Notes: generated from the sequence alone by a model not told the origin. A stretch of 44,838 nucleotides of DNA from Sedimentibacter sp. (GCF_032080165.1 NZ_DAMASY010000001.1:496247-541084), one strand, 5' to 3'; numbered from the stretch's first letter, positions 16,004 to 19,738 are shown. Made by a program: numbers and translations.

Positions 16004-16032
16004 TTGACATCATGACATTTAATGATTATAAT
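16004..16032 (+). promoter_or_regulatory. consensus sigma-A promoter (TTGACA - 17 nt - TATAAT)
   Basis: TTGACA at 16004-16009 and TATAAT at 16027-16032 with an exact 17-nt spacer, about 35 nt upstream of the XRE-family gene. Confidence 0.6.
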
Positions 16033-16063
16033 AAAAGGGAAAAATATAATTTGAATACAAGGG

Positions 16064-16285
16064 GTGTATGTCGTGAAGATAAGCTACAAGAAATTATGGA
16101 TAATGCTCATTGAAAAAGACATCTCACCTGCCACACTCAGAAAGGATTTGAATATTGCTTCTGGAACGATGACGAAGCTTCGTCGAAATGAGGAAGTAGC
16201 TCTTTCTGTCCTTTTACGTATATGCGAGTATTTAGACTGTAATATAGGCGATATTTGTGATGCTGTACGAACAGACATTGGTTAA
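16064..16285 (+). CDS. XRE/Cro-C1 family helix-turn-helix transcriptional regulator
   Basis: HTH signature ISPATLRKDLNIASGTMTKLRRNEE. The start is GTG 16064, or more likely GTG 16073 after AAGGGG. Confidence 0.7.
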   Translation: MYVVKISYKKLWIMLIEKDISPATLRKDLNIASGTMTKLRRNEEVALSVLLRICEYLDCNIGDICDAVRTDIG

Positions 16286-16349
16286 GTTAGTACTTTTGTG
16301 CTGAGAGAAGGGAACGATATGGACTTCAAAAATCAAAAAAGATGACATA

Positions 16350-16715
16350 TTGGAGTTTTTGAAGTTGGGAAGCGGGTTTTTAGGTGATTTAGCTTTTGAA
16401 ATTTATGGTGATAGTCTTAATCAAGTTGGAGAGATAGCATTTTCTGATGCGATTGAAATTGGAATCGAAAATACCATTGATTCTCTTTACGAGGCAAATG
16501 TTGATGACAAGGAAATTCTACGTATATTCAGTGAGCAGTGGAGAATTAGAATGGAGGATGTTGAGGATTGCCTTGTTTGGGAAAAGAGGAAATCAGCTAT
16601 CCGATCATTGAAACAATATTTGAAACTACAAGGATTCACCAAGGGCGAAATCGATCAGTTTATAAAAACTAACCGTGCAATATTTAAGATAGGACATAAT
16701 AAAGAACTGTGGTAG
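16350..16715 (+). CDS. hypothetical acidic cytoplasmic protein (121 aa)
   Basis: ORF with TTG start and no recognisable motif. Co-oriented between the regulator and the zinc-ribbon genes. Confidence 0.35.
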   Translation: MEFLKLGSGFLGDLAFEIYGDSLNQVGEIAFSDAIEIGIENTIDSLYEANVDDKEILRIFSEQWRIRMEDVEDCLVWEKRKSAIRSLKQYLKLQGFTKGEIDQFIKTNRAIFKIGHNKELW

Positions 16716-16785
16716 CTAAGAAGAAATCCTCAAAAGCTAATGAAAGCTGTCCAAGAAAAATAAACTATGTTGGAGGAATGGGATA

Positions 16786-17247
16786 ATGTCATTTTGCACA
16801 AATTGTGGCAGGGAATTGAGCGAGGAATTTGAGTTTTGCCCAGAGTGTGGTACATGTACTTCTCGCATAGAACAAGATAATCCGTTTTCTTGTTTTAATA
16901 ACCAGTCGGTTCATAAACAGTGCCCCAGTTGCGGCGAGTTAATGTCTGAAGATATGTTTTATTGTTTAGGGTGTGGATATCATTTCAAGAATATAGCTAC
17001 TAAAGGATCAAGTGAGGATCTCAACGTAGTCGTTTATAGAGCAAAGACGATGAATGGCACTTGGAAAAATAAATGGGTGTCGTTGTTGCTATGTATTTTC
17101 TTGGGGTGGTTAGGGGCACATAAATTCTATGAAGGAAAATTGATTATAGGACTAATATACCTATTCACTTTAGGGTTATTTGGAATAGGTTGGCTTGTCG
17201 ATATTATTCGGTTATCTTTTAAGCCTAATCCATATCAAGTTAAATAG
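16786..17247 (+). CDS. zinc-ribbon + TM2-domain membrane protein
   Basis: AGGAATGGG RBS. Two CxxC pairs: CTNCG...CPECG and CPSCG...CLGCG. C-terminal TM2-domain signature LLLCIFLGWLGAHKFYEGKLIIGLIYLFTLGLFGIGWLVDII. Confidence 0.7.
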   Translation: MSFCTNCGRELSEEFEFCPECGTCTSRIEQDNPFSCFNNQSVHKQCPSCGELMSEDMFYCLGCGYHFKNIATKGSSEDLNVVVYRAKTMNGTWKNKWVSLLLCIFLGWLGAHKFYEGKLIIGLIYLFTLGLFGIGWLVDIIRLSFKPNPYQVK

Positions 17248-17260
17248 TGGAGGTGTTATT

Positions 17261-18202
17261 GTGATATTTTGTAATAATTGCGGAGAGAAAGTAATTGACG
17301 GTGCTAAATTCTGCCAAAAATGCGGTGTTCCTACTCATGAGACATCTTCTAATCACGAAAGTCAACGGCAGCAAGAATACGCTGGAAAAAGTTATAAATG
17401 TCCAAACTGCGGTGAAATCTTAAAGTCGTTTGTGACCAATTGTCCGTCCTGTGGATTTGAATTGCGAGGTACGAAAACCACCAGTGCCGTTAGGGAATTT
17501 GCAGTTAAACTGGAGGCGATAGAGGCTCACAGAGAACATACGAAACCAGCAGGGATGTTTAATTATAGGCATCTACTGGAGATTTCAAAAACAGACCAGC
17601 AAAAAATAAATCTCATCCAGAATTTTTCTTTTCCAAATACTAAAGAGGATATGCTGGAATTTATGATTCTCGCGACTTCTAATATATATACATCCACATT
17701 AATAGGAGATGGTAAGGTAACTGAGAAAGCTATATCGAAGGCGTGGGACTCCAAAATAAAACAAGTGTACGCAAAAGCAAAAAATACATACATCGACGAT
17801 CCTGATTTCTCAAAAATACAGGATTTGTATAACTCGTATCATATTGACGCAAAGAAACATAAAAAGAAAAATATCATATACTTGATTGGATTTATTGGAC
17901 TTATTTTACTATTTATTTTTGGGCCCTTTATCTTAATAGCTAACGACCAAAAAAATGATTACAAGAAGGAAGAAACAAGATTAGAGTCTATTGTTATTGA
18001 AATCGATGACGCATTGGGAAAAGGCGAATACAAACGTGCATTGATGAATGCTGAATTGATGGAATATAATGGCTATAATAAGGAACGTGATAGTTACTGG
18101 GATGTTCGCCAGAGATATCTAATCGAGGAAATCCTACATGAAGCAGAGAAACACGGTGTTGAACTGTATTATACTCCACCCGCGGAAGAAGCAGAAGAAT
18201 AG
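17261..18202 (+). CDS. double zinc-ribbon protein with a central TM helix (YdjG/YdjH-like)
   Basis: GTG start after GGAGGTG. CNNCGEK...CQKCG and CPNCGE...CPSCG. TM helix IIYLIGFIGLILLFIFGPFILIA, then a coiled, acidic C-terminus. Confidence 0.6.
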   Translation: MIFCNNCGEKVIDGAKFCQKCGVPTHETSSNHESQRQQEYAGKSYKCPNCGEILKSFVTNCPSCGFELRGTKTTSAVREFAVKLEAIEAHREHTKPAGMFNYRHLLEISKTDQQKINLIQNFSFPNTKEDMLEFMILATSNIYTSTLIGDGKVTEKAISKAWDSKIKQVYAKAKNTYIDDPDFSKIQDLYNSYHIDAKKHKKKNIIYLIGFIGLILLFIFGPFILIANDQKNDYKKEETRLESIVIEIDDALGKGEYKRALMNAELMEYNGYNKERDSYWDVRQRYLIEEILHEAEKHGVELYYTPPAEEAEE

Positions 18203-18373
18203 TATGATTCGTCATCTAATGCAGGGATAGTAGTGGGGTTTGTTATAGGCTTAAGGATGGTATGCAACCCAAGTTGGATACTATCAAAGAAAGTATAAAT
18301 AAATGTGATTGTACCACAAACGGAGAAGAATCAGGGTATTATCTAAAGATAATGTGGTGAAAGGAGATTAAAT

Positions 18374-19738
18374 ATGAGCTTATTTGGGAAACTTAAAACC
18401 AGTGGATTCATGGACGAAATTCGTTGCGACGAACCTTCATACTTAATTTGGAAATGGCACCCTGCTGGTTCACAGCAGGGTAATAACAACAGGGAAAATG
18501 CTATTCGTTGGGGATCATCTCTCCGGGTTAAGGACGGAGAGGTTGCTGTATTTGTTTATAATCAGCCAGACGGAACAAAACAGGATTTCATTGAAGGGCC
18601 TTACGATGGGATCACCAAAACAGACAATTTTCCGGTCATCGCAAGCATAATTGGGTTGGCATATAACGGCGGCACGCCCTTTCAGGCAGAGGTCTATTTC
18701 ATCAATTTGGCCCGTATCATTCAGGTTAAATTCGGAGTGCCTTTCTTCGATGTCTATGATCCACGTTTCGATGACTTTGGTGTTCCGGTTGCTGTCAGAG
18801 GTACAATTAGCTTCAAAATTGATGATTATCGGGAATTTATAAAACTGCATAGACTTAACAGTTTCAATCTTGATAACTTTCAGAAGCAGATTCGGGATGC
18901 TGTAACCCGTTACGTGAAAGATACTGTTGCAAATGCTCCATCAGCGAATAGTATCCCATTAGTCCAGATTGAGACTAAGACCGCCCAAATTAATGATGTC
19001 ATTGAATATGACATTGCTGAAAGGTTGAAAGAAAACTTCGGAGTTGCTGTTTCGGGGGTTGATATTGGGGCAATCGAGCTGGATAAATCGAGCGGTGGCT
19101 ATGCGCAGCTTATGGCAGTCACAAAAGAGCTTACTACTGCAACTGTACAGGCTCAGACGGACGCAGGCATTAAAAATATCCACGACAAACAGCGTATCGA
19201 AGCTGAGAATTATCAGGAAACCTTGCGTATTCAACGTGACGAGGGGCAATATGAGCAACATAAGAAGACGCAAACTGCCAATTTTGCAGCATATCAGACG
19301 GAGGCACAGACTCAAGTGGGTGTTGCAGGTGCTGAGGCGTTGGGACAAATGGGATCGAACGGCGCCGGGGGAGTTGACCTCGGAGAAGGTGGTGCTGGTT
19401 TCAATCCTGCCGCAATGATGGCAGGAATGGCAGTCGGGGGTGCTATAGGTCAAAACATAGCTGGAACGATGAATAATATGATGTCAGGTACAAACACTCA
19501 GTCTACACCAGGAGCAGTTCCTCCACCGATTCCGTCAACAGCTTATCATGTTGCTGTAAATGGTCAAGCAACTGGGCCGTTTGACTTTACCACATTAACT
19601 CAAATGGCTAATGATGGACAATTAACTTCAGACATTTTAGTGTGGAAAGCGGGAATGACGCAGTGGGAAAAAGCAGGAACGATTGGAGAACTAAAAAATA
19701 TATTTACTGTGATACCTCCTATTCCTCCAACAGAATAA
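18374..19738 (+). CDS. SPFH/Band-7 (Band_7_1, YdjI-like) protein with Gly/Ala/Met-rich linker and C-terminal DUF4339 (GYF-like) domain
   Basis: N-terminal 230 aa (LIWKWHP...GEVAVFVYNQ...FQAEVYFINL...FGVPFFDVYDPRF...VRGTISFKI) fits the YdjI-type SPFH family. C-terminus YHVAVNGQATGPFDFTTLTQMANDGQLTSDILVWKAGMTQWEKAG fits DUF4339. The gene is visibly GC-richer than the surrounding DNA. Confidence 0.7.
   Translation: MSLFGKLKTSGFMDEIRCDEPSYLIWKWHPAGSQQGNNNRENAIRWGSSLRVKDGEVAVFVYNQPDGTKQDFIEGPYDGITKTDNFPVIASIIGLAYNGGTPFQAEVYFINLARIIQVKFGVPFFDVYDPRFDDFGVPVAVRGTISFKIDDYREFIKLHRLNSFNLDNFQKQIRDAVTRYVKDTVANAPSANSIPLVQIETKTAQINDVIEYDIAERLKENFGVAVSGVDIGAIELDKSSGGYAQLMAVTKELTTATVQAQTDAGIKNIHDKQRIEAENYQETLRIQRDEGQYEQHKKTQTANFAAYQTEAQTQVGVAGAEALGQMGSNGAGGVDLGEGGAGFNPAAMMAGMAVGGAIGQNIAGTMNNMMSGTNTQSTPGAVPPPIPSTAYHVAVNGQATGPFDFTTLTQMANDGQLTSDILVWKAGMTQWEKAGTIGELKNIFTVIPPIPPTE

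Follow-up and report, generated by a model that had tools for sequence, protein, structure and literature searches.

The window, a 44,838-nucleotide (nt) stretch of DNA from Sedimentibacter sp. (GCF_032080165.1, NZ_DAMASY010000001.1:496247-541084), carries genes of an integrative and conjugative element (ICE), among them those for a Tad-like pilus (RcpC/CpaB, T2SSE), a VirB6-like TrbL_5 protein and VirB4, together with an NlpC/P60 hydrolase, a MobL relaxase, a Toprim primase and a VirD4-type coupling protein. The element is chromosomal, since positions 8374-29738 are 100% identical to a stretch of a 964-kb metagenome contig. Between the two genes that make up virB4 lies a five-gene cassette whose core, an HTH_26 regulator, a double zinc ribbon (DZR) membrane protein and a soluble SPFH protein ending in a GYF_2 domain, forms a module that travels as cargo on several kinds of mobile genetic element (MGE). 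Systems that pair an SPFH scaffold with a membrane protein bearing zinc ribbons are already known; what is new is that the module is free of PspA, carries GYF_2, has its own regulator and is mobile, and the copy in the window is an ordinary member of its family. The features of the locus are as follows.

15136-15741, plus strand: virB4 N-terminal gene, 201 amino acids (aa), VirB4_plasma profile positions 93-287
15749-21479, no strand: variable cargo region between the virB4 genes, bounded by breaks in homology against locus L029 (a Sedimentibacter metagenome-assembled genome, MAG)
15960-15975, no strand: degenerate copy, CGTCAAGAACTTGAGA, of the palindrome TCGCAAGAAGTTGCGA, a candidate HTH_26 operator by sequence match
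16004-16032, plus strand: consensus sigma-A type promoter, TTGACA-17-TATAAT, 12/12 match
16073-16285, plus strand: HTH_26 (XRE-type) regulator, 70 aa, Pfam E=2.4e-18
16350-16715, plus strand: acidic 121-aa protein, optional, between the regulator and the zinc-ribbon proteins, no family
16786-17247, plus strand: double zinc ribbon and TM2 membrane protein, 153 aa, optional accessory, TM2 E=2.9e-17, Zn_Ribbon_1/DZR
17261-18202, plus strand: DZR core partner, 313 aa, Pfam DZR/Zn_ribbon_3, predicted transmembrane (TM) segment
17523-18358, no strand: hypervariable segment (DZR gene past the zinc ribbons, and spacer), unalignable in locus L192
18374-19738, plus strand: soluble SPFH (Band_7_1), coiled coil and GYF_2 protein, 454 aa, by Pfam, no TM segment
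20072-21347, plus strand: passenger open reading frames (ORFs) of 299 aa (20072-20971) and 74 aa (21123-21347), no family
21495-21521, plus strand: hairpin and T-run resembling a terminator, closing the cargo on its right side, from a terminator scan
21561-23381, plus strand: virB4 ATPase gene, 606 aa, VirB4_plasma 291-893, Pfam AAA_10, DUF87 and TraG P-loop

An earlier reading made from the DNA alone (hereafter the sequence-only reading) had described five co-oriented genes behind a textbook consensus promoter, and this description stands. The five plus-strand ORFs (16064/16073-16285, 16350-16715, 16786-17247, 17195/17261-18202 and 18374-19738) encode products of 60-70, 116-121, 153, 313 and 454 aa according to gene calls on identical contigs, and the GTG codons at 16073 and 17261 are the likely starts of the regulator and DZR genes. 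The promoter at 16004-16032 is the sole 12/12 site between 15.5 and 21.7 kb; as the overall number of promoter-like sites in that interval is at the level of shuffled sequence (22 found, 24.2 expected), only this site stands out. Relatives of the module were sought in a scan of one genome per species (185,579 species genomes), in which at least 445 were confirmed, and 80 species loci were fetched for neighbourhood counts. The HTH_26 gene is found upstream in 70 of the 80, with a median identity of 87% (86.8%) to the window regulator, and most of 70 homologous loci place a near-consensus promoter at the same relative position upstream of it. The palindrome TCGCAAGAAGTTGCGA lies approximately 17-35 nt upstream of the -35 box in most loci, and when up to two mismatches are allowed it occurs at 58 sites in 1.19 Mb of homologous loci, 57 of them just upstream of the HTH gene; the window itself holds only a degenerate copy. 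This palindrome is a candidate operator for the HTH_26 protein. That it might be a mere terminator hairpin was considered and judged less likely, as the sequence is kept across otherwise unrelated upstream regions and in both central orientations, a conservation that argues for a putative protein-binding site. The regulator itself gave just a sub-threshold, VanU-like match in searches of PADLOC, PHROG and NCBIfam, and across the cassette proteins these three collections returned nothing informative beyond that match and generic zinc-ribbon and TM2 matches.

Searches with Pfam hidden Markov models confirmed the TM2, zinc-ribbon, SPFH (Band_7_1) and DUF4339 (now GYF_2) domains that had been proposed, and assigned the regulator to HTH_26. 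In the 454-aa protein, Band_7_1 (PF13421) spans residues 40-236 (E=2.8e-21, 76.5 bits against a cut-off of 24) and GYF_2 (PF14237, formerly DUF4339) spans residues 391-440 (E=2.6e-17, 62.8 bits against a cut-off of 25.8); the protein also contains a Gly/Ala/Met-rich segment and a coiled coil. The GYF_2 domain is flanked by the motifs PPPIP and PPIPP, with invariant prolines on both sides, and the protein thus has the layout of its clade, namely Band_7_1 followed by GYF_2 with flanking proline-rich motifs. It has no TM segment (maximum 19-residue hydropathy of 1.27), and its C-terminus has no CxxC pairs, hence no zinc ribbon. The only solved structure matched by a profile of the protein is PDB 7z3c, the GYF domain of GltJ, which aligns with the GYF region (E=7.5e-6). 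When the SPFH domain alone was searched against 1.84 billion representatives, 935 matches were obtained at E<=0.001 and 135 at E<=1e-30; the best 150 matches include 68 representatives with a length of 300 aa or more, and GYF_2 is present in 52 of them, so that the fusion is a signature of the clade and no peculiarity of this cassette. Proline-rich motifs accompany the domain on its N side in 45 of these 52 and on its C side in 40. Variation at the tail exists, as in one relative (P0275) GYF_2 is replaced by three zinc ribbons, a layout akin to that of YdjI, and a further one has a zinc ribbon and a weak GYF_2 match. The sequence-only reading had regarded the fusions in this cassette as distinctive; given the above, and given that the architecture of two zinc ribbons plus TM2 is common among small proteins (2346 clusters), this idea does not hold.

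For the 313-aa DZR protein, a single TM segment is predicted at approximately residues 217-240, and an AlphaFold2 model built with database homologues (mean predicted local distance difference test score, pLDDT, of 77) is all helical past the zinc ribbons. The predicted architecture is thus two zinc ribbons, a helical cytoplasmic domain, one TM segment and a small outside domain. In 78 of the 80 loci the SPFH gene is directly preceded by a DZR-type gene. The DZR proteins have in common two zinc ribbons and, over approximately 130 aa, a cytoplasmic domain marked by the motifs NFxIPNTKEDxxEFMILAxSN and AWxxKxEQxYQKA; beyond it come 1-6 TM segments and a tail of variable length (0-400 aa), in which DUF6591 is the commonest recognisable domain. 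The conserved core order of the family is HTH_26, zinc-ribbon membrane protein (DZR), SPFH/GYF_2, with the GYF_2 tail marking the whole clade. The window cassette has this order on one strand, with HTH_26 first, the DZR gene directly upstream of the SPFH gene, and the promoter in place. Median identities to the window proteins across the 80 loci are 87% for HTH_26, 74% for SPFH and 44% for DZR. Relatives were found in Lachnospiraceae, Ruminococcaceae, Oscillospiraceae, Bacilli, Streptococcus and Peptoniphilus, at identities of approximately 70-75% that are unrelated to taxonomy (for example, Streptococcus as against Clostridia).

That the module is cargo of mobile elements, as had been proposed, is borne out by its surroundings. 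Synteny is not conserved (427 of 476 neighbour clusters are singletons), the recurrent neighbours are TnpV, large serine recombinases, tyrosine integrases, Mob proteins, primases and a rumA-like methyltransferase gene, and an MGE marker lies within the fetched flank in at least 27 of the 80 loci. Four vehicles can be described. The first is the ICE family of the window, which holds the module in two slots, at virB4 in the window and elsewhere in L029; the L029 copy is only 72-75% identical to the window module, which indicates independent acquisitions. The second is an unrelated conjugative element, L192, which shares with the window positions 15768-17523 (83% nt identity) and 18358-21539 (90%). 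The third is a 6.46-kb element, 98-99.8% identical at three chromosomal sites (L100, 8174-14636; L101, 8174-14638; L102, approximately 6878-13348), that contains the HTH gene, a 146-aa gene, the DZR and SPFH genes, two small genes of unknown function and a gene for a TnpX-like large serine recombinase (DUF4368). It is bounded by imperfect terminal inverted repeats, ATAAGACAGTAA, and the host flanks are the two arms of a terminator-like hairpin, such that the element seems to insert into hairpin loops. The fourth has the order TnpV, HTH_26, 121 aa, DZR/DUF6591, SPFH/GYF_2, DUF6602, MobC, 116 aa, resolvase. Contigs of three samples have this TnpV/MobC element (L186-L188) at a single chromosomal site, and its DZR gene is split into two ORFs in L187. 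As in Tn4451-type mobilisable transposons, the module is flanked in the small elements by TnpV, Mob-type proteins and serine recombinases; in these vehicles, however, it is the only identifiable cargo beside one to three small unknown genes, and no resistance determinant is recognisable. Comparison of the DNA of 14.5-23.5 kb with plasmids gave no match, and a protein search gave one distant hit. A phage-borne origin was considered and rejected on the near absence of the module from phage and viral collections, in which it was met in 1 of 50,697 phage records and in 2 of 2.9 million viral contigs, both without the HTH gene.

The distribution also bears on whether the cassette could be a housekeeping, flotillin-like membrane organiser that merely happens to lie in an element. 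In favour of such a role, more than 8000 database clusters are related to the SPFH/GYF_2 protein (the best 120 all at least 75% identical), which makes for a very large and strongly conserved family, and some copies sit among core genes such as valS, yabP/yabQ and those for rlmCD-like methyltransferases. However, the lack of synteny, identities that ignore taxonomy, a count of at least 445 relatives among the 185,579 species genomes, the finding of identical proteins at three chromosomal sites inside the 6.46-kb element, and a third-codon-position G+C content (GC3) foreign to the ICE together make this explanation very improbable. As to the composition, the cassette had been called GC-rich and compositionally foreign. 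It is indeed foreign, though modestly: the GC content of the window reaches its maximum of 0.457 over the SPFH gene, against approximately 0.33-0.37 on either side, and GC3 is 0.33-0.38 in the five cassette genes against 0.24-0.29 in ICE backbone genes. The high total GC of the SPFH gene is mostly due to the first two codon positions, as its product contains much Gly, Ala and Pro.

The sequence-only reading had further supposed that the cassette interrupts virB4, and this was not upheld. The two virB4 products are colinear with the NCBIfam VirB4_plasma profile (93-287 for the 201-aa protein; 291-893 for the 606-aa protein, E=1.2e-90) with nothing lost. In a further 80 relatives of the N-terminal gene taken from metagenomes (L103-L182), the N and C parts lie in separate ORFs in 58 of 58 cases where both are present, at distances from 10 nt to 6.2 kb and in many relatives just 10-25 nt apart; the single-polypeptide form of approximately 800-900 aa was not seen, in place of which the window has two genes of approximately 200 and 606 aa. 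The split is therefore native to the ICE family, and the cassette interrupted no gene. The junction is a general accessory-gene slot that holds 0-6.2 kb. Cargo of at least 450 nt is present in 33 loci (32 relatives and L029), where 80 ORFs fall into 61 clusters that include a chloramphenicol acetyltransferase (CAT), a major facilitator superfamily (MFS) transporter, a metallo-beta-lactamase fold, a DRT-like reverse transcriptase, HEPN, Fic, WYL, GIY-YIG, ImpB, GyrI-like/Cass2 and DNA_alkylation. In L029, which carries the same ICE at approximately 92% nt identity, homology to the window ends at 15748|15749 and resumes at 21479|21480, with a different 2-kb insert in between. The transferable unit in the window, by comparison with L192, is a block of approximately 15768-21539, wider than the 16004-19738 first noted and inclusive of the two passenger ORFs.

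Could the module serve the element that carries it, by addiction, by exclusion or in connection with mating, for instance by protecting the membrane during assembly of the type IV secretion system (T4SS) or by blocking a second copy? The same ICE family took up the module twice, in different slots, a second conjugative element carries it, the module is co-oriented with the T4SS genes, and a strong promoter under a small repressor-like protein may resemble addiction or exclusion cassettes. However, none of the 80 further ICE relatives carries the module within 10 kb of virB4, and some contigs show ordinary chromosomal genes with no MGE marker in the 8-kb flanks. Small non-conjugative elements carry it as well, so its function cannot depend on conjugation machinery, and a role of this kind is considered quite improbable.

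A different property of the module emerges when closely related cassettes are compared. Relative to the window, locus L014 has a zinc ribbon-TM2 protein at 94% and an SPFH protein at 97.8% aa identity, but a DZR protein at 46% (74% in the zinc-ribbon part, 38-39% in the rest); in L192 the corresponding values are 80%, 89% and 44%, and segment 17523-18358 is unalignable at the nt level between flanks of 83-90% identity. The DZR protein is thus swapped between otherwise near-identical cassettes and behaves as an exchangeable specificity part. Such replacement is often seen in the specificity parts of conflict systems, and it is here that an anti-phage or anti-invader function has to be weighed, in which the variable zinc-ribbon proteins would sense infection and the SPFH protein would control a membrane-disrupting effector, leading to abortive infection or exclusion. 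This function would also be in keeping with the carriage of the module by several kinds of MGE, in two small ones as the main or only identifiable cargo. Two loci that carry the TM2 gene resemble defence islands: in L014 the module directly follows BREX PglZ/BrxL and an Mrr-type nuclease, and in L189 it is flanked on one side by an HNH_4 protein and on the other by a DUF4011/AAA_11/AAA_12 helicase of 1543 aa. AbiD, AbiLi, type IV and type I restriction, PbeA, AriA and TIR_2 are among the nearest neighbours elsewhere, the virB4 slot also accommodates RT/DRT-like, HEPN and Fic genes, and relatives of the zinc ribbon-TM2 protein turn up in phage protein families (of unknown function, in PHROG). 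However, PADLOC-DB v2.0.0 gave no match for the five cassette proteins and two chance-level hits (E ~0.008) among seven proteins, and Pfam recognised no nuclease, NADase, protease or nucleotide-signalling domain in the cassette. Judged within the fetched loci alone, most neighbourhoods are without defence genes, the TM2 gene is missing from most loci, and the virB4 slot also holds CAT, MFS and DNA_alkylation genes, so that location says only that the module is accessory. The gene-neighbourhood check called for by the sequence-only reading therefore found defence genes and MGE nearby in some cases, but no conserved synteny, and its suggestion of a defence effector gains no direct support; on balance, an anti-phage or anti-invader role is a serious rival to the reading preferred below, though less likely than not.

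The closest known relative by design is the PspA-YdjGHI (SamGHI) system of B. subtilis, in which YdjG, with two zinc ribbons, and YdjH, a TPM protein, recruit the soluble SPFH protein YdjI to the membrane, where YdjI positions PspA, and in which loss of YdjI leads to constitutive stress signalling (PMC8581546; PMC11237479; PMC9239133; bioRxiv 10.64898/2026.02.06.704340). In the alternative nomenclature, SamG-SamH draw the cytosolic SamI/YdjI into a complex that senses membrane stress (PMC8581546; bioRxiv 10.64898/2026.02.06.704340). The likeness consists of a zinc-ribbon membrane anchor paired with a cytosolic SPFH protein (Band_7_1) that has no membrane anchor of its own. The comparison with a ydjG-ydjH-ydjI triad, as made at first, applies to two of the three parts only, since YdjH is a TPM and not a zinc-ribbon protein and has no counterpart here, and the zinc ribbon-TM2 protein is an optional accessory; that pspA is missing from the cassette had been correctly noted. 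The SPFH tail here is GYF_2 with proline motifs, whereas that of YdjI is a zinc ribbon, and YdjI-type SPFH proteins are only distantly related, as the YdjI layout, with one zinc ribbon at the C-terminus, is not seen in any of the 68 relatives that reach 300 aa among the best 150. On the level of architecture, at which alone the two were compared, YdjG has an NTF2-like (YpeB-related) domain where the DZR domain is predicted to be all helical. Whereas the B. subtilis genes are under sigma-W control, the module has an HTH_26 protein of its own, a consensus sigma-A promoter and a palindrome; the B. subtilis system, the one case of an SPFH protein with zinc-ribbon partners to have been studied, is chromosomal and tied to PspA, while the module is mobile and horizontally spread. 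For the GYF_2 domain, the relevant precedent is GltJ of Myxococcus xanthus, whose GYF domain binds a proline-rich sequence of AglZ with micromolar affinity; zinc ribbons and GYF domains co-occur widely and commonly act jointly at the membrane (PMC11135422). In GltJ (PDB 7z3c) both reside on one membrane protein of the gliding motor, with MglA and AglZ as partners, whereas in the module they are on separate proteins of an operon, the GYF_2 domain is fused to SPFH, and no MglA or AglZ partner is present. Operons of the stomatin/NfeD, FloA/FloT with NfeD2/YuaF, and HflK/C types likewise place an SPFH protein beside a dedicated membrane partner; however, that partner is of the NfeD type in stomatin/NfeD-type operons, while the module has no such protein, pairs an anchorless SPFH protein with a zinc-ribbon one, and is regulated and mobile.

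Taken together, these comparisons favour a model, to which a probability of roughly 45% is assigned, by which the module would act as a self-regulated, SamGHI-like membrane surveillance and protection scaffold that buffers envelope damage. This model proposes that the strong sigma-A promoter drives the operon and that the HTH_26 protein, by binding the upstream palindrome, sets its level of expression. The zinc ribbons and helical domain of the DZR protein would reside in the cytoplasm and recruit the anchorless SPFH protein to the inner leaflet, as suggested by the strict adjacency of the two genes and by the recruitment of SamI by SamG and SamH. SPFH domains oligomerise on membranes, and here the SPFH domain and coiled coil may assemble into a sub-membrane scaffold. 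By analogy with the binding of AglZ by the GYF domain of GltJ, GYF_2 may bind proline-rich motifs, most likely the flanking PPxP motifs of neighbouring subunits, or else a client protein. The fast-evolving, swappable DZR protein and the optional zinc-ribbon proteins (zinc ribbon-TM2 and zinc ribbon-DUF6591-DUF4839) would provide sensing and specificity. The output would be the detection and buffering of envelope damage, to the benefit of any host that receives the element.

Several points weigh against this scaffold model. The DZR-SPFH contact, the binding of the palindrome by the HTH protein and the binding of prolines by GYF_2 are ones that we infer, and the likeness to YdjI and YdjG is one of domain architecture and not of direct sequence alignment. 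No PspA domain was found in the cassette proteins, nor is PspA among the 25 commonest families in two sets of 150 neighbour proteins; a YdjH-like TPM_phosphatase domain is likewise absent both from the cassette and from the commonest neighbour families. Structure prediction, which had been suggested as a check, served for the DZR protein but not for the SPFH-GYF_2 protein, whose AlphaFold2 model from a 13-sequence alignment (mean pLDDT of 47.6) is unusable for a fold search. In agreement with the initial impression that the combination is undescribed, literature searches returned no study of any member of the module, nor of SPFH with GYF_2, of an antiphage SPFH protein or of an operon of SPFH and zinc-ribbon proteins. 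In addition, allele swapping and carriage as sole cargo on small transposons fit a function in conflict or resistance at least equally well.

It is conceivable, though unlikely, that these two lines converge, and that the HTH_26, zinc ribbon and SPFH/GYF_2 operon is a mobile membrane-immunity system in which swappable zinc-ribbon sensors detect a specific envelope insult, such as phage entry or lysis proteins, bacteriocins or an incoming T4SS, upon which an SPFH-GYF cage seals or sacrifices the membrane. If true, this would explain why the module is the main or only identifiable cargo of unrelated elements and why the sensor is swapped while the scaffold remains approximately 90-98% identical. 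Whichever its function, a module that small transposons carry with no other identifiable cargo should confer a strong and assayable benefit. SPFH proteins are universal and their bacterial roles are unclear, and to these the module adds a family of more than 8000 protein clusters and at least 445 species, on at least four kinds of MGE, in gut and digester Firmicutes; it may thereby reveal a membrane-level protection trait, directed at phage, bacteriocins, bile or antibiotics, that is spreading in gut communities.

The remaining genes of the block are less widely shared than the core. The gene for the zinc ribbon-TM2 protein occurs in a minority of module loci, and its architecture is also found without the module. 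The 121-aa protein belongs to no Pfam, NCBIfam, PHROG or PADLOC family; homologues occupy the same position in a minority of loci (L020, L023, L024, L036, L100-102 and L192), and the 121-aa genes at the equivalent position in L186 and L188 match by size and place alone. A zinc ribbon-DUF6591-DUF4839 membrane protein of approximately 610 aa follows the SPFH gene in 27 loci. The 299-aa and 74-aa passenger ORFs have no match in Pfam, NCBIfam, PHROG or PADLOC, are both AT-rich (GC3 of 0.24 for the former), and have homologues only in window-like loci and in L192 (91% and 84% aa identity). As the homology of L014 ends at 19819 and GC3 differs, they were considered as separately acquired cargo; this was rejected, since L192 moves the whole 15768-21539 block.

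The cargo of the virB4 slot is closed by a hairpin, AGCCTTGCACT...GTAGGGCTTTTTT, which is located at 21495-21521 in the window, at approximately 20075-20105 in L029 and at approximately 13990-14020 in L192. It is present in L029, L103 and L109, ICE relatives with other cargo, and in L192, an unrelated conjugative element with the cargo of the window, and L106, L108 and L156 share part of a 91-nt right-end segment; the hairpin may be the recombination boundary of the cargo block. Two further variable slots were seen in the ICE. At 10275-11818 there is a very AT-rich insert (GC of 0.26, GC3 of 0.18) with an ORF (10472-11749) for a 425-aa PIN_12 protein, which is missing from the otherwise colinear L029 and has its place taken in L002 by two small minus-strand genes (DUF2089/SHOCT-like). 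The genes for DUF8193-5 and DUF3852 enclose a third cargo slot, at the window junction 9896|9889, which in L029 (8626-13741) holds the HTH-DZR-SPFH module and a 653-aa zinc-ribbon protein.

Elsewhere in the window, Rfam and tRNA scans gave no matches. The Tad/Flp-type pilus genes (RcpC/CpaB-like and a T2SSE/TadA-like ATPase) are located at 1455-4712, upstream of the T4SS genes of the conjugative element. A cytosine-5 DNA methyltransferase is represented by two overlapping ORFs, at 13151-13813 and 13467-14888, both of which match Pfam DNA_methylase on identical contigs; the pair is kept in L001-L003 and is also present in L029, and could reflect a frameshift or a split gene.

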